A stretch of DNA of 64,000 nucleotides from an uncultured Acidimicrobiaceae bacterium. GTDB lineage: Bacteria; Actinomycetota; Acidimicrobiia; Acidimicrobiales; Bog-793. The position numbers were made by a program, and so were the translations under genes. Positions 2,280 to 59,698 of the stretch are shown here, piece after piece. The DNA lies in contig CAWAVB010000001.1 in assembly GCA_963785415.1 (NCBI GenBank), forward strand, positions 1,973,479 to 2,037,478, written 5' to 3'. Position 1 is the first letter of the stretch, and every line of letters begins with the position of its first letter. The notes below the pieces were generated by a model. It was not told the DNA's origin. It saw only the letters and a program-made list of their open reading frames with translations, and searched no databases.

Positions 2280-2480
2280 AGCACTGCGATCGGCATGTAT
2301 CGGCAATGGAGGCTCATGCCGTGTGGCGACGAAATAGCGCCGCTGCCAGGACGATGGATGCGACAAGGAGGCCAGAGCACCAGATGGTGGCGACGAAGGG
2401 CGCGTTCCCGGTGGGGGTGTGAAGCAGGAGGCCCCGCCGAAGCTCGACTAGTTGTCGCAGCGGGTTCAGCGTGTACTGGC

Positions 2481-2630
2481 GACTACGGGCGCATGATCCG
2501 TGAGCTCATCGACCCCGACCGATTGCCAGGCGTCTGGGCTGCCGCATCCGCCGGCGCGTTCGAGGACGACGCCGGCGTGGAGGGCGAGTGCCGCTTTTGC
2601 CTCGAACGGTTCCTCGACGGCACCGATTGA
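2481..2630 (+). pseudogene. C-terminal remnant of a TetR/AcrR-family regulator
   Basis: DYGRMIRELIDPDRLPGVWAAASAGAFEDD...ECRFCLERFLDG resembles the actinobacterial TetR C-terminus (P..FP.L.....G.F....F.FGL.R.LDG). No HTH is present upstream. Confidence 0.55.
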
Positions 2631-2861
2631 AGGCATCGAGCCTCGCCGGCTGGCGAGTAGCGCCATCTTCGATCTTCGGTCGGCGAGACTAGAGGAGGAG
2701 CGCAACCTCCATCTCGTTAATCGTCGAGAAACGACAGAGGTCATGACCGTGGAGATGACCGAGCAAGAAGAGCGTGAGATACGCCAGTACGTCGAGTCAC
2801 AGACCGCCGATCGAGACAACGAAGTCCAGCTCGTACAGAGAGTGGGCAGACGGCGAATCGC

Positions 2862-4310: not shown

Positions 4311-5242
4311 CGAATCGCCGGCTACACCCATGACCTGTACGACGTGTGGATGTCGAAGGGCGATAGGTGGTGGGTTATCACCGGCATGACCAATCTTTAC
4401 GCCCAGGAAGATTTTCACGACCTCGATCAGGTGTTCACCTTCCACCTTGGCCTCTGTGCTCTGCTCCGCGAGAGATTCCTGATCGAGGCCGACGAGGAGT
4501 CGGCGGAGCACATCGGCCGCGCATGGCGCCGGTACGCGAAGGCGGTTGACGCCATGAGCGAAGCCGAGGAGGCCGAGGACTTCCAGGCCGTCGGAATTCG
4601 TTGCCGCGAGGCGCTGCTCGCACTCAACCGCGACCACGCGACGGCGCCATGGCTCCCAGGAACCGAGCCGCCTCCGAAGGTCGCTGACTTCGGGGGCTGG
4701 GTAGAACTCCATGCTCAAGCCTTGGCCCGCGGCAGGATGCGGGCCTACCTTCGGGACCTGGCCAGTAGGACCTGGGACATCGTGGTTTGGCTCCAGCACT
4801 ATGCAGATGCGACGGAGCTTGATGCCGAGATTGCCCTCGAGGCGACGGCGCACTTCCTTCGTATGTTCGCTCTGGCGGTTCGCAGGTACCAGCAAGGGTC
4901 CTTGCGGCGTTGCCCGTCTTGTGACTCATACCGACTTGCCCAGGACGGCGACGTCGAGGAGCACGACGGACTCCTCGGTTACGCGACTCACGACGTCTGC
5001 CTGGCCTGCGGTTGGACCTCCGAGCAAACATTCGAGCCCTACTCAGCTGAATGGTTCGGGCGGGCCACGGAATATCTCGAAGCTGACCCAGTGGACCTCA
5101 ACGCGATCGGCGCCGATGATGCTCTCGGACGGTCCGGCTACCCCCGTTCGACACGTGGCGGCGCCTCCGATCTGGACCGCTGACACACGTTCACAGATCT
5201 GGGGTGTCTCAACCTGCGGGCATATCGCGCGGGACATCCTCG

Positions 5243-5369
5243 TGTAGCCATTTGTGTAGCCCAGCGCTGAGATCTGGCCAGACGCACTTGGACGCTTATA
5301 GGTCTAGACACCTGTTCAGAGCTGCTCTGTGGACTCTGATGGACGCCCGGATACCCGTTCGATTTCTCT
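5243..5369 (+). repeat. Degenerate 127-bp direct repeat, copy 1 (att-arm-like)
   Basis: Ungapped alignment to 18748-18874: first 23 bp identical (TGTAGCCATTTGTGTAGCCCAGC), about 95/127 identical overall by manual count. Confidence 0.85.
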
Positions 5370-5447
5370 AGGGGTTCCATCCCCAGACCCAAGCGTTTCG
5401 TACCCTGCCGAGCACACCGTCCCCGGTCAGCTTTCCAGTCATCGGCA

Positions 5448-6644
5448 TTACGAGGTGCCGTGCCTGTGAACGATCGACAGATCCTCCTCTGCAAGCGCCT
5501 CCTCTTCTTCGTCCGGGATCGCAATCGTCGGGTGGAATAGCTGCTGGGCGATGACCGTCGGGACGAACGCAGACAGGATCACGACCGTGACCAGCTCGGT
5601 GTACTGGGTCTGGTCGATGAGGTGGTGGGTCAGTCCGAAGAGCGCAGCGATTGAGCCGAACGTCAGTCCTGTCGCCATTAGCAGCGTTGTGTAGGCGCGT
5701 TCCCGGTTTGGGATCCGGAACGATGCCGACGCCGGCCAAACGCCGATGAGCTTCGACAGCATCTTGACTGCGAACAGTGCGCCGATGATCCCGGCCCCTG
5801 TGAAGAGGGCGGGTGCTGAAATGAGGGTTCCCGCTCGAAGGAAGAAGAACGGCGTGAGCAGAGCGAACGAGATCGTGCGGATTCTGTCGAGGATGACCCG
5901 ATCGTGCATGAAGACCCCGGCCACGACAAGGCCTGCCACGTAGGCGGGCAGGACCGCCTCGCTCCCGGCTGCTGTCGCGAGCCCTCCAAGCCCCAGTAGC
6001 ACGACAAGCAGGAACTTGACCTCTGGCTCGCTGATTCGATGCCCGAAGCGTGCGATGACGAGCCGCATCGCCCGGGGCAGTACGAGCATCGAAACCGCCG
6101 TGGTGACGGCGAAGGCCAGGAGCATCCACCCGTAGGTCGCGAAGAACCCGCCGAGTGCCATCACCGTTCCGAGGTCGGTTACGAAACACGCCGCCAGGAT
6201 GAGCTTGCCGATGTCCTCCCGGTTCAGGCCCGTCTCCACCATCACGGCGTAGACAACCGCAACCGATGTTGTGCTGAGGGCAATGCCTCCGATCTCCGCC
6301 GCCTGCAGATGCCAATCGAGGGCGAACCTGCAAATCGCGAAGACACCGGCGAATGGGAGCGCGAACGAGGTCGTGCCGATCACGAGACTCGCTTTCCAAT
6401 GCCGCTTCAGTGAAACCGGGTCGATCTCGGCGCCGGCGAGGAAGGTCAACAAGAGAGACCCAATGCTCGCAAGGAAGGTCGTGAACGCGGTCTGGTCCAC
6501 GTGTTCCTTGATTCCGGGGATGTTGCCTACCACGGCTCCGACGAGTATCTCGACGAGCGCCACCGAAATGCCAACCCGAACACTGATGAACGACGCGAGA
6601 AATGCCATGCCCAGCCAGATCGCAGCGATGTAGTAGATGTTCAC
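5448..6644 (-). CDS. Cation:proton antiporter (CPA2/Na+/H+ exchanger family)
   Basis: Polytopic membrane protein with FLAGAEID, LSTTSVAVV, AACFVTDLG and TPFFFLRAG motifs. RBS GAAGGGGG before GTG. Confidence 0.9.
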   Translation of the reverse strand: MNIYYIAAIWLGMAFLASFISVRVGISVALVEILVGAVVGNIPGIKEHVDQTAFTTFLASIGSLLLTFLAGAEIDPVSLKRHWKASLVIGTTSFALPFAGVFAICRFALDWHLQAAEIGGIALSTTSVAVVYAVMVETGLNREDIGKLILAACFVTDLGTVMALGGFFATYGWMLLAFAVTTAVSMLVLPRAMRLVIARFGHRISEPEVKFLLVVLLGLGGLATAAGSEAVLPAYVAGLVVAGVFMHDRVILDRIRTISFALLTPFFFLRAGTLISAPALFTGAGIIGALFAVKMLSKLIGVWPASASFRIPNRERAYTTLLMATGLTFGSIAALFGLTHHLIDQTQYTELVTVVILSAFVPTVIAQQLFHPTIAIPDEEEEALAEEDLSIVHRHGTS

Positions 6645-6711
6645 GCTTACCCCCTTCTCGGCCGGCAGGGGGTGCGGAATTAGCGCGCGCCTACCAGCAG
6701 CTTCCTTCTCT

Positions 6712-6769
6712 GGTAGAAGCCATCAGTCGAGCGGCGCTCGACGATTCGAGGGGCGGGCCTCATCGCGCC
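6712..6769 (-). promoter_or_regulatory. Fluoride (crcB) riboswitch 1, upstream of the antiporter
   Basis: Minus strand GCGATGAGGCCCGC-CCCTCGAATC-GTCGAGC gcc GCTCGAC-TGATGGCTTCTAC, with a GAGGCC/GGCTTC pseudoknot. A CTACCAG...CTGGTAG hairpin follows and a TAACAT -10-like hexamer precedes it. Confidence 0.85.
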
Positions 6770-7284
6770 TCCTCGGATGTTATCGGGACTCATCGACCCC
6801 CAACTCGTGCCCTGTTGCCAAATGCCCATTTGGGGGAGCCACGCTCAGCGGGCTTGAGCGGTTGCCACGAGGAAGCGAATATCGGCCGTCCTTCGGCACC
6901 ACGACCTCCATGGCCGAAAACGCCAGTCGGAGATTGGTGACGGCGGCTCCCCGACACGGCGAAACTGCCTTTTGAAGTCGTGTTTGTCTTTGCGATCCTG
7001 CAGCGAAAAATGCGTCCAGCTCCAGGGCATCCGTTTTGCTAATCAGGCGTCAAGGAACGCTTTGCGCTATTCGCTTGCGAGTGGATCGAGACGGCGAATC
7101 GCGTCTCGCGGTTGAGGTATTCAGGGCCTTCGGGGCCGCGCCGCCATCTCGGCGAAGCCGTCGGTGAAGGTGTGCACTTCTCGCGCGTCCTTTGCTTCCG
7201 CCTGGTGCGACGAACTCTTCATGGCCCGGACGTCGAGCCGGATCGTGAGTCGCCTGGCGTCCAGAAGGCGATCCCGAGGCCTCC

Positions 7285-7749
7285 TCAGCGGCGCCGGTTG
7301 TCATCGTGGATCAGACCCTCGTCGAGGGCGGCCCGGAACCCAGGATGCAAAGGGAGAAACTGCATCTCCTTCCGAGTGAACCAACCTGTTGCATCGCTCT
7401 CATGAACGCAGTAGGCGAGGAACATTTCCTCGACGTCTGCAAGGACGATATAGAACTTCCAGCCACCTCCACAGTCCTGAATGGTGATGCTGCGAACTCG
7501 ATAAGCAGGAAGTGTTCCTACCTCTTCCTCGGATTCGCGCCGCGCGGTCTCTTCTGGACTTTCGCCCACGCGAATCGCGCCGCCAGGAATGCCCCAGGTC
7601 CCCCCTTCGTCCACCCATCTTGAGCGCTGCTGAAGGAGGAACTGTGGCTCAACACTCAGCGAGAACCCGTACCGGAGAAGGAGGCCAGCACCGCCGAGTG
7701 CTCCCCAATGCACGTGGTTCACGTGACAGATGGTCCAGCGGTCCACCAT
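7285..7749 (-). CDS. NUDIX hydrolase
   Basis: Nudix box G-AIRVG-E-SPEETAR-RESEEEVG, HWGALGGAGLLL N-terminus and LHPGF C-terminus. The true start may be GTG 7722. Confidence 0.85.
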   Translation of the reverse strand: MVDRWTICHVNHVHWGALGGAGLLLRYGFSLSVEPQFLLQQRSRWVDEGGTWGIPGGAIRVGESPEETARRESEEEVGTLPAYRVRSITIQDCGGGWKFYIVLADVEEMFLAYCVHESDATGWFTRKEMQFLPLHPGFRAALDEGLIHDDNRRR

Positions 7750-8111
7750 TCGATGCTAGTGGGGCATTGTGAAACGACCGGCGAATTCCACCGAACGAAG
7801 ATCTTCCTCTAGCGCCCCTCCGGTTTAGCGGAGGAGGCGAGGTAGGGGCGCGCTGGGGACAACGACAAGGAGAGCAAGGAAGGCAAGGCGGGGACTCCGG
7901 TACCAAGGGCAATTTGGCGAGTTTCTGCTCGACCGGGGAGTTTGGTGTCGCAACTTGTCGCAGGCGATGGGGAACCGTCGTCGCCATCGTTTGCCACGAG
8001 ACAAGTGGGGCTCGCTCCAAGGTCGTCCTGCGCGACACGTGATCTGTAGTCCGTGACGCTATTAAGGCGAACGTCACACGGCAGCGAGTGGCCGTACTGA
8101 TTTCGCTCGCG

Positions 8112-9299
8112 TCAAGGCGATCGATGCTGGTCGCGCCGCACTCGGAAAATGACCGGCACGGCCGCGAGCTCGGCGACCACGCAGAACGCGACGACGCCGC
8201 CGAGCGAAACTGAGAGGAGCGCGCCGATGACGACGCTGCCGAGGAACCACGCGATGCCATAGATCCCGGTGAACAACCCGTACGCGGAGGCTCGGCGGTT
8301 CCGGGAAACCATTGGCGCGACCGCGGCCGGGATGATCGCCTCGTGCACGCCCATCCCGAGGCCCCATAGCGCCGCACCGATGAGCGCCGGCCAGAATCCC
8401 GCGAGGAAGACAAGCGGCGCGTACGCGGCCGCGACGATCGTGAGAGGGATGAGCATGCCGATGCCGACACGGTCGAAGACGCGTCCCAAGATGAGCGAGC
8501 CGCTGCCGCTCACCGCCATCGCCACGGCGTAGAAGATCGGGACAAGTGTCACCGACACCGTCTTTGCCTGGGTGAAGTGGAACGCGATTAGCGGGTAGTC
8601 CGCGAAGCCCGCCGCGACGAGCCCCGCCGCGACGAGGTAGACGTAGAACACGCGCGGGAATCCTTTGGTCGTGACCTCCGGGGGACCGGCGGCGAGCTCC
8701 TGTGGCCGCGGGTACTGGACGCGGGCGATGAACAGCAGGGACAGCATGATGACCGCCGGCACTGTGAGCGACGCGAAGGCGAGCTTGTACTGTCCGTGGC
8801 TCACGGCGAGGATGAGGGCCACGGCGAGGGGCCCGAACATCGCGCCGAACTGGTCGAGGCCCTCGTGCAGGCCGAACGCCCAGCCGTAGCCGATTTCCTT
8901 CGCGGCGTGCGAGAGCATCGCGTCGCGCGGCGGATTGCGCGTCGCCTTGCCGACGCGTTCCAGGATGATCAGCAGTGCAGCGATTTCCCAGTTTCCGGCG
9001 AGCGCGAGAAGGGGTACGACCGCCATCTGGAGCACGTAGCCGCTGATCGTGACGGGCCAGTAGCGCTGGGTCCTGTCGGCGAAGCGTCCCGAGAAGGCCC
9101 GGAGCCCGTAGCCGAGGAGCTCGCCGAAGCCGGTAATGGCGCTGATGCCGAGCGCGCCGACGCCGAGGATCGCGAGGTACGGGCCGACGATGGTGCGCGA
9201 GCCCTCGTAGGCGAAGTCCGCGAAGAAGCTCATCACGCCGACGGTGACGATGAACTTCATCGCTGGTGTCGCCGCCCTGAGGCGCTCGCGAGTCGTCAC
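8112..9299 (-). CDS. MFS transporter
   Basis: 12-TM pattern with SFFADFAYEG, GRFADRT, ERVGKATRNPPRDAML and GRVFDRVG. Start placed at GTG 9299 (uncertain). Confidence 0.9.
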   Translation of the reverse strand: MTTRERLRAATPAMKFIVTVGVMSFFADFAYEGSRTIVGPYLAILGVGALGISAITGFGELLGYGLRAFSGRFADRTQRYWPVTISGYVLQMAVVPLLALAGNWEIAALLIILERVGKATRNPPRDAMLSHAAKEIGYGWAFGLHEGLDQFGAMFGPLAVALILAVSHGQYKLAFASLTVPAVIMLSLLFIARVQYPRPQELAAGPPEVTTKGFPRVFYVYLVAAGLVAAGFADYPLIAFHFTQAKTVSVTLVPIFYAVAMAVSGSGSLILGRVFDRVGIGMLIPLTIVAAAYAPLVFLAGFWPALIGAALWGLGMGVHEAIIPAAVAPMVSRNRRASAYGLFTGIYGIAWFLGSVVIGALLSVSLGGVVAFCVVAELAAVPVIFRVRRDQHRSP

Positions 9300-9536
9300 A
9301 TGCGAACCACGCGGAGGAGGTTGCCGCCGTCGCGCACCCCGTGCACGGTGAGGAAACTCCCGGCACGGAAGTTCCTCCACCGCCGGTCGAGCGTGTTTCG
9401 GGAGACAGGCACCTCTATGGCCTCGAGGAACGAGCTACTTCGGGAATCGCTGGTTCGAGCAGCCGGATTCGGTTGATGGGACATGCCACGCCCGCTCGTG
9501 CAGAGGACGATCGCCCGCCGGTTAGACCTCCTGTCG

Positions 9537-11109
9537 TCATGTCCGACTTTCCGGCAACGGGCATTCACGGCGCACCGAGTGCAGCTGTAATGAAGACCGG
9601 GCCGGCTCTCCCGGCGCGGGCGGTGGCGGCGCGAAGATGCGTCGGTAGGAATCCTCTCCGTAGCTGGTCGGAAGTGGCTCGCCCTCGACGAGCCGGAGGG
9701 TCCGACGACCGTCAGCGAGTCTTTCGGCCCGGAGGAACAGCGCCGTGTCCAAGTGCTCCGTGAAGAGCCCGTGCGCGAGCTCAAACAGGTGGGTGACGAA
9801 GAGAACCTTGACGCGGGCATCTGTCAGCGCGCGGATGACCTGGCGAGCGATCTCTGATCCCTCCCGTTCGTTGGTCGACGCGAAGGACTCGTTGCACAGC
9901 ACGATGCAGTTCGGAGTGACACTGCTCGCGATCTCGCTCATCCGGCCCAGCTCCTCGTCGAGCTTGCCGCTTTTCATACTGGGGTCCTCTTCTCGCTTGA
10001 AGTGGGTGAAAACCCCTTCGCAGATGTTCGCCCGGAAGGATTTGGCGGGAACGAACATGCCGCTTTGCATCATCAGTTGGGCAACACCGACACTTCGCAG
10101 GAAGGTCGACTTGCCACCCTGGTTGGCGCCGGTGATCATGACGAGCCATCGATCGTCCGCGTTGACGTCGTTGCCGATCGCCCTTCCTTCGAGGAGCAGG
10201 CTGAGGCATGGGTCGTAGAGGCCCTCGACGGAGAACTCCGCTCCTGCGGCTTGTTGCGGGTCCGGAAAGCAGGTCGGCTCACCTTTCGCAGCAAGCTGTT
10301 CGTGGAGGTTCAGACCACCGACATAGAACGCCAACTCGGCCATGAGCATTGCGAAGAAACTTTGGATGTGATCCGCCGACTGGGCGAGGGCGTTGGCCAC
10401 CAGGTTGATGCCTTTCGACCTCAAATCGTCGAGCGCACGCGAAACCCACGTCGTCGCGGCTGTCAACCTGATAACTCAGGCGAGATCTGTCAAAACGAGA
10501 GATCGATTGCCTCAGGCTTCGCACCGGGACCCGTCGAAGCACGTGGTTGGTGGCCGCGTTTCCCGTGCTCAGCTGTGCGCTGATCAGGACTCCGCGGCGG
10601 AACTGGAGCTCTCGTAGATGCTTCTCGATCGTTCGGATGTAGTCGTCGTCGAGCTCTTTCGCGACCATCGCGAAGAATCGCAGGAAGCCTTCGGAGCGAA
10701 AGTTGTCGACTTGACCGTCGCAGATGTTGCGGAGTCGCTTCAGGGAGCCGACGAAGATTTCGAGGACGTCCACCGACCGACGCAGGATTGAACCGGGCGA
10801 GTCCACCAATGGGCCCCAGACTCTTCGCTCGGCATAAACGGTCGCCGACGCGAGCTCGTAGATCTGGCGCACCACCGACGGGTTCTCAAGGCAATCGGTA
10901 AGTACGTCCTGGCGATAGGTAATCGCCTCGCGTTCAGTCAGCGGTGAGAGAATCATCTGGCGAGCCAGCTGGAAGACCAGTTTGTCACCCTGCGCCATGG
11001 TCCTGAACAGGATTTCGAGCTCGAGATCCGAGACGAGATCCTGCGCATTAATGGGCATCTCGGCTTGTAGGTCGAGATCGCGATCTCGATACATGAGATG
11101 AGCGTTCAT
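9537..11109 (-). pseudogene. MutS-domain-V ATPase, second gene of tandem pair (MutS4-like); one-base frameshift near 10443
   Basis: The N-part (ORF 10279-11109) and C-part (ORF 9537-10466) join as ...DSRDDVG-SRALDDLRSKGINL... if one T is removed from GGTTTCG. Walker A TGANQGGKST, FTHFKREED, LCNESF, FVTHL. Confidence 0.85.
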
Positions 11110-12662
11110 CGCGTCACTCGCTCCTTGAGCGAGTCGTAGCTGAGGCCGTACTTGTGGGCAAGGGCGACGGCGTGAGCACGTCCATCGGCCTGCTTTCTCT
11201 CCACCTTGTAGGTCCGTACGTCGGGATCCTGGGGGACGACGGTCGCAACCACGCTCACCGTCGTGTCGCCCAACGATGACAACTCGTCGACGAAGGTGAC
11301 GTACACACAGAGCGAGCCAATCTCGATCACTTGCTCTAGCACCGCCGTTCCGATGTACAAGGCATCGGCGAGGGTCGTGGCTGTGAAGCTCTCGTTCATA
11401 ATCACGACGCTGCGACTCGTCGCTTCGTGGAGGATCTCATGGACTCGCACGAGTTCGTCCTCGAGTTTGCCGCGTAAAGTCGTGAGGTCTTCCTGCTTTT
11501 CGAAATGGGTGAAAATCCGGTCCGGCAAGCACAGGCGGGCGCGTCGTGCGGGAACCGGAAACCCGAGAGCTGCGAAGTAGTGCAACTGTCCGAACATCCG
11601 GGCAAACGTCGTCTTCCCACCCTGGTTCGCTCCTGTCACGACGAAGATCCGCTCCGGGTCGGCAAGCGTGAAGTCGTTGCGAACGATCGGCAACCCCTGC
11701 GGTACCAGCGTGTTCGCCAGCGCGAGGTCGAACGCTTCCTGCGCGAAGACCGCTCTTGACTCCGCGGACACCTTTGGGTAACAGAACGGCAGCCCAGCGT
11801 TCCGGAGCCAGTCGAGATGTTCCAGGTACGCGAGATAAAACTGCACCTCCCGGTCGAAGGTCCGGACGTAGAGGTCGACGAACGAACCGTGGTTGGCGCG
11901 ATAGCGATGCAGTGAGGCGAAGACGTCAGGAAAGAGGCGTGCGACGAGCTGCAATATGTGTGCTTGGACGTGGTCCATGCTGGAGTAGTTCGCGAACTTC
12001 ACGCGGTAATCCTTGACAGCGCCCTGCTTGAACCTGGCGAAGATCTCTTCCACGTCGAGGCTGTAATCGGGTTCTCCGGCGTATTTGACTACGGTCACCC
12101 GAGTTCCCCTGATGTGCATGCAGTAACGCAGCGCGCCGAGTTCGTGTCGAAGTCGCGCGGCTTCCGTTTCAAGCGAAACGAAGCCTGGGGATTGTCTGTA
12201 CGCGGCCAAGTAATCACGGAGCGCCGTGAAACCACGTGAGCTAACCGGTAGGCAGTTGAGCCCTTCGGAGAGGCTGTTGACGGCCGCGCAGTACATCTCT
12301 GCCGAGTCGAGGAACCACCCTTCCTCGTATAGGCGGTCGCGCAGCTTATTCATCCCGGTCAGATGTGCTCGCACCCGATGCATCTGCTCGGCGAAGGACT
12401 TCACGCACTGCCGTACCTCATGGTCTTCCAGATCCTGAAGAACTTCCTGGCGGTAGCGCACCGTCGCTGAATCGTGCAGTGGCGCGTAGAAGAAAGGCCT
12501 GAGGTCGTACTCGGAGCGGCCAGCGAGAACTGACTCGAGCACCTGGTCGAGGCGGAGGTCGGTGAAGTACGAGGGCTCCTCGGCCACGGAAGCTACGTGG
12601 TCCGGCGGGCGTTCGAAGAGGATGCTCGTGAAGGGCAGGCGACCAGAGACCATCAGCATCAA
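11106..12662 (-). CDS. MutS-domain-V ATPase, first gene of tandem pair (MutS4-like)
   Basis: TGANQGGKTTFAR, IFTHFEKQED, IMNESFTATT, YVTF. No mismatch-binding domain I seen. ATGA overlap with the next gene. Confidence 0.9.
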   Translation of the reverse strand: MMLMVSGRLPFTSILFERPPDHVASVAEEPSYFTDLRLDQVLESVLAGRSEYDLRPFFYAPLHDSATVRYRQEVLQDLEDHEVRQCVKSFAEQMHRVRAHLTGMNKLRDRLYEEGWFLDSAEMYCAAVNSLSEGLNCLPVSSRGFTALRDYLAAYRQSPGFVSLETEAARLRHELGALRYCMHIRGTRVTVVKYAGEPDYSLDVEEIFARFKQGAVKDYRVKFANYSSMDHVQAHILQLVARLFPDVFASLHRYRANHGSFVDLYVRTFDREVQFYLAYLEHLDWLRNAGLPFCYPKVSAESRAVFAQEAFDLALANTLVPQGLPIVRNDFTLADPERIFVVTGANQGGKTTFARMFGQLHYFAALGFPVPARRARLCLPDRIFTHFEKQEDLTTLRGKLEDELVRVHEILHEATSRSVVIMNESFTATTLADALYIGTAVLEQVIEIGSLCVYVTFVDELSSLGDTTVSVVATVVPQDPDVRTYKVERKQADGRAHAVALAHKYGLSYDSLKERVTR

Positions 12663-12674
12663 CCGATCTATCTC

Positions 12675-12720
12675 GGTAGAAGCCGTCAGCCGACAGGCAG
12701 TTCAGGCGGGCCTCATCGCC
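12675..12720 (-). promoter_or_regulatory. Fluoride (crcB) riboswitch 2, upstream of the MutS-like pair
   Basis: Minus strand GGCGATGAGGCCCGCC-TGAACTGCC-TGTC-GGCTGACGGCTTCTAC, essentially the canonical aptamer. TAAAAT lies just upstream. Confidence 0.93.
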
Positions 12721-12841
12721 TAAAGTCAATTTTAGCCGACAACGCGCACCCGGTCGGGCGGGGCCCACCGGGCTGTGCGGCGCGAGTTCAGTGTGCCACG
12801 CAGACTTTCTTGGTAAACCGCTAGCGTTTGGGCGAGTAGTT

Positions 12842-12908
12842 GGCGATGGATCCCGCCGGGTCTGCTCTGTAGACCAGCCCGCCTCGGTCGGAGGCTGATG
12901 GGTTCTCT
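12842..12908 (+). promoter_or_regulatory. Fluoride (crcB) riboswitch 3, divergent from riboswitch 2
   Basis: GGCGATGGATCCCGCC, optional P2 (GGTCTGC tct GTAGACC), GCCTC ggtcg GAGGC, TGATGGGTTCT. The pseudoknot GGATC/GGTTC includes G-U pairs. Confidence 0.8.
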
Positions 12909-12971
12909 GAGACAGGGAACCATGGCAGACGATCGATTCCAACCCCGGGAAGTCATCGAGAGCGCCTTCTG

Positions 12972-13184
12972 ATGGCTGATGCGGGATTGTTCGTGATTGG
13001 ACTGGTGCTGGCCGCGCTCGCCGGCCTCATGGCTTTCCTCGTCACCTACGACGAGATGGGGCGCCACTTCCCCAACCGAGCCGCGGCACGGCGACACGCG
13101 ATGAGAAGCGGGCTCACGGCGTTCGCCTTTTTCGCCGTCCTTGTCGTTGTGCTCGCCGCGATCCTTCCCCGGCTCGTCAGCTAA
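12972..13184 (+). CDS. Small 2-TM membrane protein (70 aa)
   Basis: Two hydrophobic helices flank a TYDEMGRHFP loop. Lies downstream of riboswitch 3, with a TGATG overlap to a 16-codon uORF (12922-12972). Confidence 0.7.
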   Translation: MADAGLFVIGLVLAALAGLMAFLVTYDEMGRHFPNRAAARRHAMRSGLTAFAFFAVLVVVLAAILPRLVS

Positions 13185-13213
13185 CGCGGGGTGACAGGAC
13201 CTGCCCGGTGCGA

Positions 13214-13825
13214 TCAACGATCGCCGGAGCTCTGTTGCTGGCCGATCTCGGGGAGCTCTCCGAGGTGCACCGTCCTCCACGTCGGCGCGCCGGAGGATTG
13301 TTCGAGCTCAGTCCAAGATCCAGTCGGTAGTTCGAGCCTCGCGAGTTCGAGCCCGGGGACGAGACGGCGGAGGAGGGCGCGCAGCACCGCGTCGTGCGTC
13401 ACGAGAGCAACACCGGCAAGGCCTCCGTTCTCCGCCGAGTGAGTTCGGAGCGAGTCGAGGAAAGCGGCGCTCGTCCGTGATTGGAAGTCTTGCCACGGCT
13501 CCACCCCAGGGGCGGCGTCAACGGAACCGAATCGTTCTTCGACCTCGTCGAGAGTCTTCCCGGCCCACTCGCCGCAGAAGCGGTCTCGTAGCCGATCGTC
13601 GACCACGCGGGGCGAATTCGACCCAGAGGAAATGTGCCGCGCCGTGTCGAGTGCTCGCCTGAGTGGACTCGACACCACGACTGCCAATGGCACGTGTCGG
13701 AAGACCTTTCCCAGAGCGGCGGCCTCCGCTTCGCCGGTCTCGTCGAGCGGTACGTCGAGCTGTCCGCGCAGCAAACCGGCTGCGTTGAGCGAGGTTCGAC
13801 CGTGGCGGACGAGGAAGACCCGCAT
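13214..13825 (-). CDS. Histidine phosphatase (phosphoglycerate mutase superfamily)
   Basis: LVRHGRT, SSPLRRALDTA, GEWAG, VTHD. Confidence 0.92.
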   Translation of the reverse strand: MRVFLVRHGRTSLNAAGLLRGQLDVPLDETGEAEAAALGKVFRHVPLAVVVSSPLRRALDTARHISSGSNSPRVVDDRLRDRFCGEWAGKTLDEVEERFGSVDAAPGVEPWQDFQSRTSAAFLDSLRTHSAENGGLAGVALVTHDAVLRALLRRLVPGLELARLELPTGSWTELEQSSGAPTWRTVHLGELPEIGQQQSSGDR

Positions 13826-13830
13826 TGTCC

Positions 13831-14268
13831 CTACCGTGCGCAGACGAGATAGGCGACGACCAGCACTATCAATATGTAGAGGAGGTAGGCGTTGACGTCA
13901 TCCGATTGGACGGTTTCGCGCACCCGCGCGGCCCCGAGGGCCGGGCGGGGGATTGGCCGATACAGATGCCGTTCGGACAGCGGCGAAACCCTGGTCCGAT
14001 GGTGGGCCGGACCCGGGCGACCGGCCGGATCATCAGATGCTCGGTCGATGTGGACCTCGGGGCGGTAGAAGCGGTCGAAGGTCACCCTGACGGGGTTCGC
14101 GAACGTCGTCCCCGTGTAGTGAATGCGCACGTCATACCTCACGATTCCACGGTCCCACACCGGACCCCGCCCCGTCGCGCCGTGAGGTCGACTGGCCGGG
14201 AAGGTCGCCACAGGGACGGGGCGCGTCCGTCGGGCGGTTTTCGAAGCAGCGACCCTACCTGAATTCAC
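13831..14268 (-). pseudogene. C-terminal remnant of a hydrogenase-4/formate hydrogenlyase membrane subunit (HyfB-like)
   Basis: YTGTTFANPVRVTF...LYRPI...VQSDDVNAYLLYI matches the HyfB/HycC tail pattern YT.T.F..P.R..F...LY.P...LQSG....YL.YI. The long N-terminal TM region is absent. Confidence 0.65.
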
Positions 14269-15141
14269 TCAGAAGTGATCCTGCTGTAGCTGGTCGAGCA
14301 GGCGGACGGCGTCGAGACCGCGCCAGGTGTCCCGTAACGTCGAGATCGCGAAGTGCCGGGCCCCGAGTCCACCGTCGGCCCGTTGCAGAACGGTCAGGCT
14401 CTCGGCGATGGCGTGCGGGTAGCTCGGCTGGAGTCGCAGCCCGTGGACGAGTACGAGCCCGCCCCACAAGGCGTCGACTGACGTCGCGCCGGCGTCCGGA
14501 CTGAGTCGCATCCCGAGGACCCGGCTCTCACAGCGGCGGAGGAACTCCTCGGTCATGGACCTTTCCTCGGCCGTCAGATGCGAGGGTCCCGCGATCGACA
14601 CGGCGACGGCTGTGGTCGCGAGATCGGCGCCAGGGCGGGCCCAGCCCCCGTGTGGATCGCGCGCCACGGCGAGAAGGTGCGCGAACTGATCGCACGTCCG
14701 GTCGCTGGGGCCCATATCGGCGAGCCGGCGCAGCTCGGCGATGTAGAGCGCTTCATACAGCGTTCCCTGCCAGTTGCGTGACCCGTCGGCGCGCGCGAGC
14801 GCTTCCTCGCGGTCGGTGAGCCATACGGCGGGCGAGTGGTTCGGCGCGATGCCGAGGAGGGCGAGGGCCCGCAGCGTGGCCCAGCCGATCGTGAGGGTCG
14901 GATATCCGCCAGCGTCGTCCTGCAGACCACGTAGCCAGGCCACGGTGAGTTCGGTTTCGGGGACGCGGATCTCGAGGAGGCGCAGGCACTCCAGCGCGGC
15001 GAGGGTGTCGGGCGCGTTCGGCTCCTCGACGCCCCATTCCGGGGTCCGGTAGAAGGAGTATCCGCCCAAAGGGGTGCGCCTGCCAAGGACATAACGCCCG
15101 GCTGCCTCGCGGTCGAGACAAACGGTCGAGCAGAACGTCAT
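14269..15141 (-). CDS. Prenyltransferase/squalene-oxidase-repeat (alpha/alpha toroid) protein
   Basis: Repeated L..LQ..DGG motifs (RTPLGGY, LQDDAGGY, RDPHGGW, LQRADGGL). Confidence 0.7.
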   Translation of the reverse strand: MTFCSTVCLDREAAGRYVLGRRTPLGGYSFYRTPEWGVEEPNAPDTLAALECLRLLEIRVPETELTVAWLRGLQDDAGGYPTLTIGWATLRALALLGIAPNHSPAVWLTDREEALARADGSRNWQGTLYEALYIAELRRLADMGPSDRTCDQFAHLLAVARDPHGGWARPGADLATTAVAVSIAGPSHLTAEERSMTEEFLRRCESRVLGMRLSPDAGATSVDALWGGLVLVHGLRLQPSYPHAIAESLTVLQRADGGLGARHFAISTLRDTWRGLDAVRLLDQLQQDHF

Positions 15142-15145
15142 GACG

Positions 15146-16405
15146 CTAGGCGAGTCCGTAGGGGAAAGCCCCGCTGGCCTCGATCTGGATCAGCCGGTTG
15201 TACTTGGCTACCCGCTCGCCCCGGGCGGGCGCACCGGATTTGATCTGGCCGCAACCGCTGCCAACGGCGAGGTCGGCGATGAAGGCGTCCTCGGTCTCTC
15301 CGGAGCGGTGGGAGACCATCTGGGCCCAACCTGCCGCGCGGCACCGCCGCATCGCTTCGAGGGTCTCGGTGACCGTGCCGATCTGGTTTAGCTTGATGAG
15401 GGCGGCGTTCGCCGTGCCGCGCGTGATCGCCTCGGCGATGATCGTCGGATTGGTGACGAGAATGTCATCGCCGACGAGCTGGATGCGGTCGCCGAGACGG
15501 GCCGTGAGCTTCGTCCAGCCGTCCCAGTCGCCCTCGGCGAGGCCGTCCTCGAGACTCCAGACGGGATAGGCCGCGATGATCTCCTCGTAACGCGTGATCA
15601 TCTCGTCGGTGGACAGCGACTCCCCGGCGACGTGGTAGCTGCCGTCGCGGTAGAACCCGCTGGCGGCGGGGTCGAGGGCGAGCGCGACCCCCTCGGGACC
15701 GGGGGTGTAGCCGGCCGACTCGATCGCCGCGACGAGGAGGGCGCAGACCTCTTCGGGCCGGTCGATCTCGGGGGCGAAACCACCCTCGTCGCCAAGTCCC
15801 GTCGCGAAGCCCCGGTCTGTGAGCCAGTGCCGCAGGGCGCCGTAGACCTCGGCACCGGCGCGTACGGCCTCGGCGAGGGAGGGCGCGCCCACGGGGGCGA
15901 TCATGAACTCCTGGAAGTCGAGCTTGTTCGGCGCGTGCACTCCGCCGTTCACAACGTTGAAGTTGGGAACGGGTAGCCGCGGTGTCACGCCTTCCGGGGC
16001 GAGGGCCCGCCAGAGGGGTTGATCGATGGCCTGGGCAGCGGCTCGTGCCGCGGCCATCGACACCCCGACGACGGCGTTGGCGCCGAGGCGGGACTTCGTC
16101 TCGGTCCCGTCGAGCTCGATGAGGGCTGCGTCGAGTGCCGCCAGGTCGGCAAAGGTGCGGCCGACGAGTGCCTGGGCGATCTCGCCGGTCACGTTGGTGA
16201 CCGCTTTGAGCACACCCTGACCGGAGAAACGGTGGGGATCACCGTCACGGAGTTCAACGGCCTCGCGCGAACCCGTCGAGGCGCCGGCCGGCACCCCGGC
16301 ACGGGCAATCGTCCCGTCGGCGAGCGTGATGGTGACCGCGAGGGTGGGACGCGCCCGCGAGTCGAGGATTTCGACCGCATCGAGGGTCGTCACTGTTAGC
16401 GCCAT
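15146..16405 (-). CDS. eno: Enolase (phosphopyruvate hydratase), island-borne copy
   Basis: EILDSR, GASTGSREAVELRD, QEFM, GDEGGFAP, LVGDD, LIKLNQIGTVTET, SHRSGETED, ERVAKYNRL. Confidence 0.97.
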   Translation of the reverse strand: MALTVTTLDAVEILDSRARPTLAVTITLADGTIARAGVPAGASTGSREAVELRDGDPHRFSGQGVLKAVTNVTGEIAQALVGRTFADLAALDAALIELDGTETKSRLGANAVVGVSMAAARAAAQAIDQPLWRALAPEGVTPRLPVPNFNVVNGGVHAPNKLDFQEFMIAPVGAPSLAEAVRAGAEVYGALRHWLTDRGFATGLGDEGGFAPEIDRPEEVCALLVAAIESAGYTPGPEGVALALDPAASGFYRDGSYHVAGESLSTDEMITRYEEIIAAYPVWSLEDGLAEGDWDGWTKLTARLGDRIQLVGDDILVTNPTIIAEAITRGTANAALIKLNQIGTVTETLEAMRRCRAAGWAQMVSHRSGETEDAFIADLAVGSGCGQIKSGAPARGERVAKYNRLIQIEASGAFPYGLA

Positions 16406-16500
16406 GGGTTTCCTTTCCCGATCTAGCTTCTTGAGCTTCCCGTGCGAGCGACGCGTGTCGCAGGCACAACGTCACCATTTGGCAAGGATCTCCTTAGATC

Positions 16501-18243
16501 TCATACATCCGTCCCGAACTGGCCAGTTTCACCGAATGACAGGGCATGAAGTGCCGCTTGGCGAGCCACCTGGGCCGCCGCCAACCGGTGGTCGCGCTCG
16601 GACTCGTTCGCTTGTCGCAGCTCCTCGGCCCGGGCGGCGGCTGCCTTGATCGCGTTGATCGCACCGTCGAGTTCCTCGCCCATGGCGGCCTCGAACTGGC
16701 GTCGGACCGAGTCGAGACGTTGCGTGAGGTCCCAGCGAGCCCGGCCGGCGTGCTTGTCGAACTCCCGGGTCAACTCCGCACACGCGCGCGCGAGGAGACG
16801 GCGGCGGACGAGGGAGGGCGGAAGCAGTCGCCGGCCCGCCCGCAGCAGATCTTCTCCGCTTGGTTCGATTTTCAAGAACAGGTAGAAGAACCGCTCCCGC
16901 TCGGCGGCCACGGCTGGGACGGCGACGGCCGGCAGCGAGATGGTGAACAGGTCGGCCGCGGCCTGCCGCACGCGGTTCACCCGCTCCTCGGTCCTCGAGC
17001 GAAACCGCTCGGCGAGTGTCGTCCAGGCCTGCTCCACACGGTCGGCTTCGGCTCGGCGGAACTCCTCGAAACCTTCCTGCACGGCTTTTTCCACGGTGCT
17101 TTGCAGCGCGTCTTGAAGCCGACCGACCGGAACGGTCTCGGCGACCGACTCGAGTTCCTGCGTGTGTCGAGCCGGAGCGGTTCGGGCGAAATCGAAAAGG
17201 CGCTCGGCGAGTCCGGCCATGAGCACGGCGACGTCCCTCGCGAGAAGAGTCCGTTCGTCTTCGAATGCCTGGCGCTGCCCGGCGGCCTCGGTCTCGAACT
17301 CAGTCACGCGCCGCCCGAGCTCCGCGGATTCGAGGGCAAGTCCCACCATCTCGAGCGAGACGGCGTCCTCCAGAGCGCGGCCGAGGCGGGCAAGCTCGCG
17401 CCGGGCGGAGACGAGCCGCGCCTCGACGAGGTCGTTCCTCACGAACTCCTCGAAAGCAGCCTCGAAGGCCGCGAAGTCATCGCCTTCGCGGCCGTCTCGG
17501 ACCCGGCCGACCTCGCCTCTCGCGAGGGCCGCACGGGCGGAGAGGCACCAGAGTTGTTCGTTGCGGCCGAGCTCCGCTGCGACCGCGTCCGAGACGAAGC
17601 GGCGGACCTGGTCGCGTTCGCGCGTTGCGAGGTGATCGATCTTGTTGAGCACAAAGAACGTCGGCGCCCGCCGTTCGGCGAGGACGCCGAGCAGCTCCTG
17701 TTCTCGCGCGGAAAGTGGCGAGTCGGCCGAGAGGACCAGGATCGCTCCGTCAGCGTCGAAAAGCGCGCGACGCGCCTCTTCGTCGTTGTGCCGGTAGATC
17801 GAGCCGAGGCCCGGCGTGTCGACGAGCACAAGCCCCGGCTCGAGCAGCCGCGCCGGCACTTGCACCTCCACCCGCGCAACCGAGCGTTCGTTCGCGGGGT
17901 TGCGCTCCTCGGTCACGTACTCGGCGAGTTCGTCCGGCGCGATCTCGTAGCGGCGGCCATCGAGATGTTCCACGACCGCGCGGCGCTCCCCGAAGGAGAT
18001 TTCCGTCGCGACGGCCGTCAACGGCAGCGCGCCGGTAGGAAGGATGTCCTCGGCCAGCAACGCGTTGACGAGCGTCGATTTGCCACGTTTGAACTCACCG
18101 AGCACCGTGACGTGGAAGCGCCTCTGAGCCAGACGATCGCCGAGGCGCCGAGCGCGCGTGGCGATGTCGCCTGCAGGCTCTTCGGTAGCGGCCAACTCAC
18201 GCGCCGTCGCCGTCAGTTCGTCGAGTTCGCTGGTCACGGTCAT
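16501..18243 (-). CDS. Bacterial dynamin-like GTPase
   Basis: G1 GEFKRGKSTLVNALL, G2 LPLT, G3 DTPG, G4 NKID, followed by a long helical/coiled-coil region. Confidence 0.92.
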   Translation of the reverse strand: MTVTSELDELTATARELAATEEPAGDIATRARRLGDRLAQRRFHVTVLGEFKRGKSTLVNALLAEDILPTGALPLTAVATEISFGERRAVVEHLDGRRYEIAPDELAEYVTEERNPANERSVARVEVQVPARLLEPGLVLVDTPGLGSIYRHNDEEARRALFDADGAILVLSADSPLSAREQELLGVLAERRAPTFFVLNKIDHLATRERDQVRRFVSDAVAAELGRNEQLWCLSARAALARGEVGRVRDGREGDDFAAFEAAFEEFVRNDLVEARLVSARRELARLGRALEDAVSLEMVGLALESAELGRRVTEFETEAAGQRQAFEDERTLLARDVAVLMAGLAERLFDFARTAPARHTQELESVAETVPVGRLQDALQSTVEKAVQEGFEEFRRAEADRVEQAWTTLAERFRSRTEERVNRVRQAAADLFTISLPAVAVPAVAAERERFFYLFLKIEPSGEDLLRAGRRLLPPSLVRRRLLARACAELTREFDKHAGRARWDLTQRLDSVRRQFEAAMGEELDGAINAIKAAAARAEELRQANESERDHRLAAAQVARQAALHALSFGETGQFGTDV

Positions 18244-18271
18244 CCCCGGATCACGCTTCGTTCACGCTTCC

Positions 18272-18323
18272 GTAGGAGCCATCAGCCCAACTCTTGGGCA
18301 CTCGACGGCGAGCTCCATCGCCC
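18272..18323 (-). promoter_or_regulatory. Fluoride (crcB) riboswitch 4, upstream of the dynamin-enolase operon
   Basis: Minus strand GGGCGATGGAGCTCGCC-GTCGAGT-GCCCAA gag TTGGGC-TGATGGCTCCTAC, with a GGAGC/GCTCC pseudoknot. TAGCCT lies just upstream. Confidence 0.92.
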
Positions 18324-18497
18324 GACCAAAGGCTAGCTGCGCGCGCTTGCCGAGTGTCGCCGAGCCTGTCATCGGCGTCGGACCCGTCCACGGGATCGCG
18401 TCGAAGGGCTCGACCCAGCGCGGTTCAGTTCGTGACTGCTTACCAGTTTGGGATACCGCCGCGAGGGTGGGCCTTCTTTGACAGTAGTAGTCGGCTT

Positions 18498-18720
18498 CTA
18501 ACTCGTCGGGGTCGTGCAGATCGCGTCGTTAGTGATCTCGTCGTGGAGACGGCGGTGGTTGAACGAGTCGACGTAGCCAAGCGTGACGAGCTCGATGTTG
18601 TCGAGGCCGCGCCGCGGCCGCCGCGGGCAAAAGAGCTGCCATCGGTAAGGGCCGTTGAAGCTCGCAGCCATCGCGTAGTCATAGCTATCGCCACGGGCTC
18701 GACCGAGGCGACGAGGTCTT
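18498..18720 (-). pseudogene. IS3-family transposase C-terminal remnant
   Basis: GDSYDYAMAASFNGPYRWQL...RGLDNIELVTLGYVDSFNHRRLH is a decayed GDSYDNA.AES....K.E...W.....VE.AT..WV.WFN..RLH motif. Confidence 0.8.
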
Positions 18721-18747
18721 TCTAGGCGAGGCCAGTCAACCTTCGCA

Positions 18748-18916
18748 TGTAGCCATTTGTGTAGCCCAGCACTCAGACCCGATTGGACGCGAACAGACGT
18801 CCAGCGACACAGGCACCTGGTCAGAGCCGCGCCCTGGACTCTCATGGACGCCTGGATACCTATTCGATTTCTCTGGCAGTTAAGAGGTTCGGGGTGTGAG
18901 TTTCCCAGCATCTACC
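18748..18916 (+). repeat. Degenerate 127-bp direct repeat, copy 2, running into a decayed tRNA-Ala(GGC)-like 3' half
   Basis: 18748-18874 aligns to 5243-5369. It continues TGGCAGTTAAGAGGTTCGGGGTGTGAGTTTCCCAGCATCTACC, which resembles TGGCA..AGAGGTCAGGGGTTCGAGTCCCC.TAGCTCCACC. Confidence 0.75.
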
Positions 18917-18992
18917 GTGACGCAACTAGTCACCGACAGCATGGCTGGTCGCTAACGCTTCGACGTCGCTCTCCGCTATCAGGACCGAATCC

Positions 18993-19193
18993 CTAGGACT
19001 CCATCCATTCAGCGAACTCACTCCAAGTTGCCTTTTTCGCTCGTCTCGCGCTGCGGGGTTTCCAGTCGACGCCGCCCCGACTGAGGCGCGCAGCCCCAAG
19101 CAGCGTGTTCCCCTGTCGTACCTCGAAGATCACATCGACGTTTCCGATGGGTATCGGGTGTTCAATGCTGAGCTTGACGTTGTGTGTGGCCAT
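18993..19193 (-). CDS. Small hypothetical protein (66 aa)
   Basis: Globular, protein-like composition (alternating beta pattern, LSRGGVDWKP, TWSEFAEWME). No family recognised. Confidence 0.6.
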   Translation of the reverse strand: MATHNVKLSIEHPIPIGNVDVIFEVRQGNTLLGAARLSRGGVDWKPRSARRAKKATWSEFAEWMES

Positions 19194-19420
19194 GTACACA
19201 CGCTAGTCAGACCCTGGCCCCGACAAGAGTGGTCACCATTCCCGGGGCGGTTCATGGCGCTGCTTGTCGATGTTCGAGAGCTCGATGTCCGGCTACTGAT
19301 CCCGCTCTTGATAAAAGCCTCGGCAGTCCCAGTGCTTAAGCTCTCCTACCGCAGTCGCCGGCAAACGACGACACGCCTGACTCCCGGGCTCAGGGTGAAG
19401 TAGCCCGTGCACCCGCGACA

Positions 19421-20620: not shown

Positions 20621-20710
20621 GGGTGAGATAGTAGACCAAATCAGTAGACCGAGGCACAATCCGCATTGGAGGAACTACGTCATTCTCGCCTCTCACCAGG
20701 ACTACTTGAG

Positions 20711-20783
20711 AGCGGACGACGGGACTCGAACCCGCGACCCTCACCTTGGCAAGGTGATGCTCTACCAACTGAGCCACGTCCGC
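20711..20783 (-). tRNA. tRNA-Gly(GCC)
   Basis: GCGGACGTGGCTCAGTTGGTAGAGCATCACCTTGCCAAGGTGAGGGTCGCGGGTTCGAGTCCCGTCGTCCGCT forms a complete cloverleaf. CCA is not encoded. Confidence 0.98.
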
Positions 20784-59335: not shown

Positions 59336-59466
59336 ATCCCGCTCCTCCTGGCCGAGCGCGCGGCCTGTCGGTCGGCCTCACCCTCGGAGCGGGGACACCC
59401 CCGGGAAGGTCCCAGGGGCGCTGCACCTTGCAGCCGCCAACCTTGACGCGAGGCTCGACATCTCCT

Positions 59467-59639: not shown

Positions 59640-59698
59640 TGCTACGCAATTCGTGCAGCGGCGACATTCTGCACGGCACCCCCGACGGGTGCAACCAC

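Follow-up and report, generated by a model that had tools for sequence, protein, structure and literature searches.

The stretch of DNA analysed here, a 64,000-nt piece of the genome of an uncultured Acidimicrobiaceae bacterium that is called the window throughout, contains between positions 5448 and 18331 a gene module that is, in our judgement, probably a fluoride-responsive regulon. This regulon would be constituted by four riboswitch-led units placed on a strain-specific mosaic island, in a genus that has neither the fluoride exporter Fluc (CrcB) nor, with one exception, a protein of the CLC family. The first aptamer would control a CPA2 cation/proton antiporter; the second one, a pair of MutS-like ATPases and possibly, further on, an MFS transporter and a NUDIX hydrolase; the third one, a short upstream open reading frame (ORF) followed by a small membrane protein called here sm70; and the fourth one, a dynamin-like GTPase, an enolase, a prenyltransferase-fold protein, the remnant of a hyfB gene and a histidine phosphatase. 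Coordinates follow the numbering of the window, with the strand in brackets. The genome under study (G000; 2 contigs, 2.2 Mb, estimated completeness 92%) was compared with 40 relatives, which makes a set of 41 genomes; nine of them form the genus (eight being sister species) and 24 the wider family.

The four aptamers lie within 11.6 kb, and two of them are variants below the threshold of the Rfam family Fluoride (RF01734, crcB motif), whose gathering score is 34 bits. When the whole window was scanned at this score, it was reached by two of the four, those at 12670-12729 (-; 42.7 bits, with TAAAAT 10 nt upstream) and 18266-18331 (-; 40.4 bits). Both have P1 4/4 and pseudoknot 5/5. A permissive scan of positions 5000-19500 gave the variant at 6707-6776 (-), with 27.7 bits (E 3.1e-4), P1 3/4, pseudoknot 5/5 and a P2 of 7 bp. 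The variant at 12833-12914 (+), scored by scanning 171 nt alone, reached 13.6 bits (E 0.15), with P1 4/4 and pseudoknot 5/5, two of these pairs being G-U. Its low score is due to a 17-nt hairpin inserted between P1 and P2 (J1/2) and to the tail, UCUG instead of UAC; its pseudoknot, GGAUC/GGUUC, is changed in both strands with respect to the GGAGC/GCUCC usual in the family. The start of the AUG loop and the CUGA[UC]G 3' core are present in all four elements. All the counts of P1 and pseudoknot pairs come from a per-sequence structure parse of 28 aptamers of this genome and its relatives, because a MAFFT alignment of 16 aptamers put the insert-type variants in the wrong place; two rows of the parse, the CPA2 aptamer of G005 and the sm70 aptamer of G064, are wrong at the 3' core.

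When the complete 2.2-Mb genome was searched on its two strands with a descriptor that required 4/4 pairs in P1, the AUG loop, a core at a distance of 9-45 nt and 5/5 pseudoknot pairs, three sites were matched, namely the two Rfam-passing aptamers and 12833-12914 (+), and five block-shuffled genomes gave 1, 0, 1, 0 and 0 matches. The CPA2 leader aptamer (6707-6776) is outside the descriptor matches because its P1 is only 3/4. A search of the whole genome with RF01734 found no aptamer outside the window, all the matches being located in the module, and no further aptamer was detected ahead of the MFS or NUDIX genes (6780-9650, E<=10). Judging from these features and from the recurrence in relatives described below, we take all four elements as real aptamers of the fluoride class, 12833-12914 being the least certain. 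The first-pass annotation of this region had described four crcB-type aptamers at positions that agree with ours within 10 nt. P1, the 5/5 pseudoknot and the core are indeed found in all four, but the covariance model passes two, leaves one under its threshold and fails one. The -10-like hexamers that it had placed upstream can be seen by eye as TAnnnT, 8-15 nt away from each aptamer; however, a strict sigma-70 scan found no promoter beside the aptamers. Terminator-like sites were not above the shuffled level. The loop region of P2 in the CPA2 aptamer varies in the population: at window position 6738, contigs from the runs X5 and X6 have an additional C there.

Both variants recur in relatives. 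Five sub-threshold RF01734 matches (25-31 bits) are located directly upstream of CPA2 genes that are 70-81% identical to the one in the window (G003, G005, G010, G011 and G023, among the 40 relatives); these loci were collected via aptamer matches and hence indicate recurrence rather than presence ahead of every orthologue. The P2 of these aptamers shows compensatory changes: it is GUCGAGC/GCUCGAC in the window, GCCGAGC/GCUCGGC in G003 and G005, and of the GUCGGAG/CUCCUUCGAC type in G010. A CUACCAG...CUGGUAG hairpin is found 3' of the aptamer in all six CPA2 leaders. The hairpin-insert type precedes sm70 homologues in G060 (22.8 bits) and G064 (16.9 bits) and is also present in G013, G011, G023 and G024, ahead of genes other than sm70. 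The back-to-back arrangement of the MutS-leader aptamer and an insert-type aptamer occurs again on G013:C34, with 47 nt between them.

RF01734 gives 30 matches altogether in the 41 related genomes, roughly one per 4 Mb, and fluoride aptamers of the family genomes precede the same gene families as in the module: CPA2 genes in five genomes, dynamin-like genes in two (G010 and G003), MutS-like pairs twice, and MFS, enolase and histidine phosphatase genes once each. Outside the family, a 55.6-bit aptamer is located ahead of a dynamin-like gene, a TPR gene and an sm70 gene in a Phycisphaerales metagenome-assembled genome. On G013:C34, 16 kb carry four aptamers, two MutS-like pairs, an enolase, a toroid protein, a DUF190-like ORF and a histidine phosphatase. 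On the same contig, a 284-aa protein of four helix-turn-helix-like repeats lies behind an insert-type aptamer, and the genome of G013 holds eight aptamer matches, plus two crcB pairs.

The first unit contains a single gene (5448-6644, -), which encodes a CPA2-type cation/proton antiporter of 398 aa that comprises the membrane domain only (PF00999, 2.8e-37; TIGR00932 CPA2, 3e-32, under its cutoff). In the second unit, MutS-like ATPase a (11106-12662, -; 518 aa; MutS_V 5.9e-20) has the ATPase domain of MutS2/MutS as its nearest solved structures, and its homologues (47% identity) are placed behind aptamers twice on G013:C34. In the present assembly, MutS-like ATPase b (9537-11109, -; MutS_V 3e-22) is spread over two reading frames: a single intact protein of G013 is matched by its N-terminal part (11109-10534) in one frame and by its C-terminal part (10436-9633) in another. 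Since contigs of three other runs have one base fewer at 10441, and the stretch minus this base is one 523-aa ORF, we attribute the frame break either to strain variation or to an error in the assembly. Both proteins contain ATPase domain V only. The MFS gene (8112-9380, -) is a 422-aa ORF whose true start is probably later (PF07690, 3e-23); no NCBIfam or PDB relative of the protein was found. A homologue in G013 that is 61% identical has its own 42.6-bit fluoride aptamer and is located next to a crcB pair. The NUDIX hydrolase (7285-7749, -; 154 aa; PF00293, 5.6e-15), whose membership of the regulon is uncertain, was not seen beside the aptamers of relatives. The gap of 360 nt between both genes (7750-8111) is overlapped only by an Arg/Ser/Pro-rich ORF (7649-8470) that looks like a high-GC off-frame artefact.

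The third unit begins with an upstream ORF of 16 codons (12922-12972, +), whose AUG is 2 nt 3' of a 9-bp hairpin that includes the pseudoknot 3' strand and whose stop overlaps the sm70 start (TGATG); this ORF is absent ahead of sm70 in G060 and G064. The sm70 gene (12972-13184, +) encodes a 70-aa membrane protein with two predicted helices, which belongs to an unannotated family. The fourth unit would start with a bacterial dynamin-like GTPase of 580 aa (16501-18243, -; Dynamin_N 7e-26), whose nearest solved structures are IniA (6j72, 2e-15) and BDLP (2j68). It is followed by an enolase (15146-16405, -; TIGR01060, 545 bits, cutoff 300), the third copy in the genome, the other two being located at C1:459488-460744 (80% identical) and C1:1199285-1200499 (58%). 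Next is a 290-aa alpha/alpha-toroid protein of the prenyltransferase type (14269-15141, -), whose nearest atlas clusters carry PF00432 (score 0.98) and which has no Pfam match at 1e-3. The 145-aa ORF that comes after it (13831-14268, -) resembles the C-terminal end of hyfB (hydrogenase-4 subunit B type), covering positions 554-668 of the 669 of NF005086. Its residues 17-144 (128 residues) are 57-64% identical to the ends of 678-850-aa frames in relatives, and a search of PDB sequences returned nothing for it. The last gene encodes a protein of 203 aa of the histidine phosphatase / phosphoglycerate-mutase superfamily (13214-13825, -; PF00300, 1.9e-41), with no NCBIfam equivalog at cutoff. In G064, G010, G095 and G105 the same phosphatase comes after a full-length hyfB-like gene, and in relatives this full gene is convergent with a riboswitch-led dynamin gene; by these alignments, the hyfB-like piece is a remnant that marks a rearrangement.

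The gene classes given by the first-pass annotation (CPA2 antiporter, MFS, MutS-like ATPases and enolase) were thus confirmed, and its formate-hydrogenlyase gene is of the hydrogenase-4/formate-hydrogenlyase type but amounts to the 128-residue C-terminal remnant of a hyfB-like gene. Its view that the aptamers lead most of the module's genes agrees with the four units, but neither the MFS gene nor the NUDIX gene has its own aptamer. The 80% identical enolase is part of a second locus (L059, 3993-6640; G000:C1:458992-461640) in which RNase P RNA is followed by this enolase and by a toroid paralogue that is 73% identical. No aptamer was found at this locus; therefore, the enolase-toroid pair is conserved apart from fluoride control.

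A six-frame search of the genome (2 contigs) with PF02537 (CrcB) and PF00654 (CLC) gave 0 matches, while the same searches were positive in 11 and 12 out of 14 control genomes, respectively. A lineage-specific profile, made with CrcB proteins from genomes of the same family, and tblastn found nothing in the genome either, their best E values being 1.3 and 0.2. The lack of Fluc and CLC-F genes that had been noticed in the window therefore extends to the whole genome. CrcB is found in none of the nine genomes of the genus and CLC in only one (G003), so that the missing exporter is a trait of the lineage rather than of the island, which was added on top in this species. In the wider family, CrcB is present in 10 of 24 genomes, mostly as riboswitch-led pairs. 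No aptamer is found in six of the eight sister species. Fluoride exporters are regarded as the first line of defence. According to PMC11139923, they are present in over 85% of reference genomes, and those lacking them are mostly reduced symbionts.

The sm70 family is, in our opinion, the most promising lead. When 1.84 billion proteins were searched with a three-sequence profile, 244 representatives were collected at E<=1e-3, and almost every one has a length of 64-75 aa. Their two hydrophobic helices are separated by a common motif, AFLI[TAS]Y[DE]E..[HR]H[FY]P....R[RK], whose fourth position is I or V in the form that defines the family. The family is matched by no Pfam or NCBIfam model, and Pfam searches on its relatives at E<=10 produced sub-cutoff noise only. 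The loci studied were fetched by that motif, so all 25 fetched loci carry it. An RF01734 match was found within the fetched flank in 18 of 27 sm70 loci, and in 16 of them it is upstream on the same strand: 3/3 own-family loci (3 upstream on the same strand), 7/7 loci on genome contigs (6) and 8/17 loci on metagenome contigs (7). The titles of the genome-contig records name Solirubrobacterales, Phycisphaerales, Patescibacteria, Saccharibacteria, Armatimonadetes, Anaerolineae and Chloroflexi, and those of the sm70 loci name five phyla. The gene is mostly the last one of its unit. It is preceded by a prenyltransferase-fold gene in two loci (PF00432, Patescibacteria) and by a DUF6062 gene in two loci, with another one nearby on the other strand. 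Elsewhere it comes after a triple DUF190 gene together with crcB, or after a dynamin-like gene plus a TPR gene. DUF6062 proteins are seen directly behind fluoride aptamers and beside sm70 in L052, L057, L058 and possibly, from about position 2870, in L048.

The strongly basic loop suggests, on the predicted helices, that the loop of sm70 is cytoplasmic and both termini outside, with a fixed topology. A kinship with CrcB was considered and discarded, as hhalign gave a probability of 0.3% and no similarity. The predicted two-copy complex (alignment A4) had a score of 0.01, from which nothing was drawn, and the structure neighbours of sm70 in the atlas, which are generic helical hairpins, were not used. 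A bolder idea, to which we give very little credence, is that sm70 might represent a third, previously unrecognised kind of fluoride-resistance membrane protein, either an oligomeric conduit for fluoride or HF or an essential subunit of one, which together with pH control by CPA2 would replace Fluc and CLC-F in a free-living peat and soil lineage.

The module is part of a segment that varies among the species of the genus. In all eight sister species the conserved flank ends at window position -7217, and conservation starts again at 20695-20704, where tRNA-Gly has its 3' end. Both flanks are 27.9 kb apart here; in G004 the distance is 3.9 kb and in G002 14.2 kb (in these cases both flanks are on one contig). 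The segment found here is absent from the site in 8/8 sister species. In the six stretches compared its sequence is unrelated, the exception being G001, which shares the integrase and has other cargo. Aptamers, sm70 and the hyfB piece are all missing from the nearest relative, G008, whose flanks have 93-96% nucleotide identity; none of the eight sister species was found to have sm70. The segment starts on the left with an IS21 element, to which SbcCD-like genes with an ADP-ribosylglycohydrolase, a four-copy IS-like element and the fluoride module succeed; an IS remnant and an integrase close it on the right. The GC content is 59-67% over 1-13000, against 68.8% in the genome, and native-like over the right 5 kb, with 66-70% in the enolase operon. 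The tyrosine integrase (19421-20659, -; PF00589, 2.8e-17) adjoins the 3' end of tRNA-Gly(GCC) (20710-20783, -), a tRNA gene that, by the synteny of the flank, is the right border of the variable segment. A 94% identical (amino acids) integrase is located at the same tRNA-Gly in G001, with other cargo (L045, G001:C2, 10625-12394).

On the left border, a repeat of two ORFs of 276 aa and 479 aa (2907-5183, +) is probably an unclassified insertion sequence; tblastn finds four genomic copies of the 276-aa ORF with 98.5-100% identity, and in these copies the matches of the 479-aa ORF cover its first 189-225 residues only. The repeat has no Pfam or NCBIfam match. Its other copies are placed around 33-1376, 1938168-1939565 and 2076702-2078207 of G000:C1. 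The module is also flanked by a 127-bp repeat (5243-5369, +, and 18748-18874, +), whose two copies are 75% identical and have the same orientation; it has further copies elsewhere in the genome and in G001, one of them, of the 127-170-bp repeat, at 4317-4490 of L045 (G001:C2). Close to the right copy lies an IS remnant that holds the 3' end of a transposase gene (18429-18732), about 80% identical over 306 bp to five other genomic copies; the ORF end in it presumably resembles the tail of an integrase-core transposase. A composite transposon was considered and rejected, since the left (2907-5183) and right (18429-18732) elements belong to different repeat families and the 127-bp copies are 75% alike. 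To the left of the window and at its beginning (L039, 11344-17944, and 65-1807) there are IS21 IstA/IstB, a calcineurin-like phosphoesterase, a 950-aa SMC/AAA_23 ATPase (SbcCD-like) and a 580-aa ADP-ribosylglycohydrolase, a stretch that may be defence-type cargo of the same segment. We read these observations as an island of mosaic make-up, specific to this strain, that occupies a hot spot of integration. The mobile, portable character attributed to the module by the first-pass annotation is in line with the strain-specific segment of 28 kb, the integrase at tRNA-Gly and the IS copies, but no att repeat and no second copy of the module elsewhere in the genome were found, and the island is a mosaic.

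How the module came to its present place is where an alternative has most weight. It could have been built piecemeal, by local recombination of resident genes in a chromosomal hot spot, without ever moving as a unit, and we consider this a serious contender that falls somewhat short of an even chance. The right half has native GC, the enolase and the toroid protein have chromosomal paralogues 80% and 73% identical, the truncated hyfB shows a rearrangement relative to G010, G064, G095 and G105, the several parts have their closest counterparts in different relatives, and an att repeat is missing. However, there is an integrase at the tRNA, IS21 and the four-copy IS-like element lie on the left, the left half is low in GC, the segment is absent at the site from all eight sister species, and in G001 this tRNA is accompanied by the same integrase but by other cargo, as in a typical integration hot spot.

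The content of the regulon can be disputed as well. The module might hide an unrecognised exporter (the MFS protein, sm70 or both) and be an ordinary export-centred regulon with a new exporter, which we think unlikely. This would fit the MFS homologue of G013, which has its own 42.6-bit aptamer directly after the crcB pair, and sm70 as a membrane protein near fluoride aptamers in records whose titles name five phyla; exporters are seldom missing in free-living bacteria (PMC11139923), and a non-canonical transporter, BenE-I, aids tolerance in a crcB mutant of P. putida (PMC13104614). However, the MFS gene of the window lacks an aptamer of its own and has no characterised relative, sm70 has no similarity to CrcB, crcB stands beside sm70 in two loci, and sm70 is absent from the eight sister species, which also lack exporters. 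It seems to us improbable that the regulon has just two working switches, namely the aptamers above the threshold, and that the leaders of CPA2 and sm70 are decayed relics or chance look-alikes. The scores of 27.7 and 13.6 bits for a threshold of 34, the G-U-rich pseudoknot of the sm70 leader and its changed 3' tail speak for this two-switch reading. Nevertheless, the CPA2-type variant is kept ahead of orthologues in five other genomes, with compensatory changes in P2 and a conserved downstream hairpin; the insert type recurs ahead of sm70 in G060 and G064 and ahead of other genes in G013, G011, G023 and G024; and the sm70 leader, which has a bona fide aptamer at a distance of 113 nt, is one of three descriptor matches in the 4.4 Mb of strand that were searched.

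Several observations weigh against a fluoride regulon of four units on a mobile island. With respect to the aptamers, 6707-6776 is under the Rfam threshold (27.7 bits) and 12833-12914 far below it (13.6 bits) and without the usual CUAC tail, and the CPA2 loci of relatives were selected by their aptamers. The MFS and NUDIX genes, with no aptamer of their own and set apart by gaps of 157-363 nt, are perhaps outside the regulon. Nine of the 27 sm70 loci have no aptamer match, four of them with less than 900 nt of upstream sequence, and sm70 is not simply an exporter substitute, because it occurs together with crcB in L052 and L057. The completeness of the genome is estimated at 92%, and six of the eight sister species have neither exporter nor aptamer, so the genus copes without the module. 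Regarding mobility, blastn-short (word size 11) of the tRNA-Gly against the variable segment found no att repeat of 11 nt or more, and the flanking repeats are of different kinds or just 75% alike.

If the four-unit regulon is accepted, its switches would act as follows. The structural details of the pseudoknot switch that responds to fluoride and Mg2+ belong to general background, and the mechanism proposed here combines the solved mechanism of the family with predicted folds. Fluoride and Mg2+ would lock the pseudoknot, so that its 3' strand is not free for an alternative hairpin and expression is on. This alternative hairpin would hide the ribosome-binding region in the third and fourth units and form the CUACCAG/CUGGUAG stem in the first one. 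In the predicted fold of the sm70 leader, the pseudoknot 3' strand is part of the 9-bp hairpin ending 2 nt ahead of the AUG of the upstream ORF; in that of the dynamin leader, a GGGG immediately ahead of the AUG is paired with CUCC from the pseudoknot strand; and in the CPA2 leader the conserved hairpin and a second stem over AAGGGGG are predicted ahead of the GUG start. That fluoride with Mg2+ stabilises the pseudoknot and turns downstream genes on is described in PMC11139923.

With respect to physiology, a cell without a fluoride channel would mitigate fluoride rather than expel it. The antiporter could adjust the pH of the cytoplasm as well as the pH gradient by which HF is driven into the cell and fluoride is trapped; the extra enolase and the mutase-family phosphatase may replace or out-titrate the glycolytic steps inhibited by fluoride; and the IniA-like dynamin protein might maintain the membrane. 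The MutS-like pair and sm70 would also take part. These roles are proposed from the gene families, from the review PMC11139923, which deals with antiporters and enolase in the fluoride response, and from the precedent of the genomic island GI3 of E. cloacae (PMC5533749). As for the habitat, seven peat and soil metagenome runs from four studies, besides one possible source run, hold at least half of the sampled words of the module, and contigs of four such runs match pieces across it with 0-1 differences; this comparison used contigs only, and several short joints in it have sides of less than 35 nt. Peat is, as is generally known, usually acidic, and low pH raises the share of membrane-permeant HF. 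The acid habitat suggested by the first-pass annotation fits these runs.

Fluoride riboswitch regulons that control crcB (Fluc) or eriC-F (CLC-F) were reportedly described by Baker et al. in 2012. Genes for MutS-related proteins are also associated with this riboswitch. The aptamer class of the canonical crcB/eriC-F regulons, RF01734, is the same as that of the window, and Na+/H+ antiporters, enolase and formate hydrogenlyase are accessory classes shared with them (PMC11139923, PMC7266159). However, canonical regulons most commonly control exporters, which are missing here, and two of the four aptamers are structural variants (long P2; J1/2 hairpin). The closest system in print is GI3 of E. 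cloacae FRM, with the gene order ppaC-uspA-eno-gpmA-crcB-orf5249 (PMC5533749): like the segment described here, it is a strain-specific island with a fluoride riboswitch, an extra enolase and a gene of the phosphoglycerate-mutase family. GI3, which is backed by knockouts, has one riboswitch and crcB. Here the aptamers are four, an exporter is missing from island and genome alike, and the added genes encode a CPA2 antiporter, MutS-like ATPases, a dynamin-like GTPase, a toroid protein and sm70.

Regarding single proteins, IniA and BDLP (6j72, 2j68) combine a dynamin-type GTPase domain with a helical region, as does the GTPase of the fourth unit; IniA aligns over residues 16-408, although the likeness is distant (E 2e-15). 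Fluc is, like sm70, a small membrane protein, its gene being commonly controlled by fluoride riboswitches and that of sm70 lying near fluoride aptamers. However, Fluc has four helices and dual topology, and sm70 has two predicted helices with a strongly basic loop. Control of a dynamin gene by a fluoride riboswitch was not found in print in our searches, which were limited, and the gene tables of Baker et al. 2012 may list such families as hypothetical. By title and abstract, nothing relevant was found that links the fluoride riboswitch to prenyltransferases, DUF6062, DUF190 or a small membrane protein. Thus, while fluoride riboswitch regulons and a fluoride island with eno and gpmA are already known (PMC5533749), what appears to be new is the absence of exporters from the genome and most of the genus, the presence of four aptamers in 11.6 kb, including two variants under the Rfam threshold, and the dynamin-like, toroid and sm70 genes as recurrent, predicted targets of fluoride control, which are not mentioned in the literature searched.

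The genus is a free-living one of peat and soil, with 2-Mb genomes and no exporter, in which one member gathers all its fluoride aptamers in one island. This lineage offers a natural test bed for accessory fluoride genes, with no exporter masking them. Two gene families stand out as leads: the unannotated small membrane proteins tied to fluoride aptamers in records whose titles name five phyla, and the dynamin-like GTPases that are recurrent behind such aptamers. Because the Rfam threshold misses two aptamer variants, fluoride regulons in high-GC lineages are probably under-counted. Far from the module, the window also contains a full-length cobalamin riboswitch (59455-59652, -; 119 bits).

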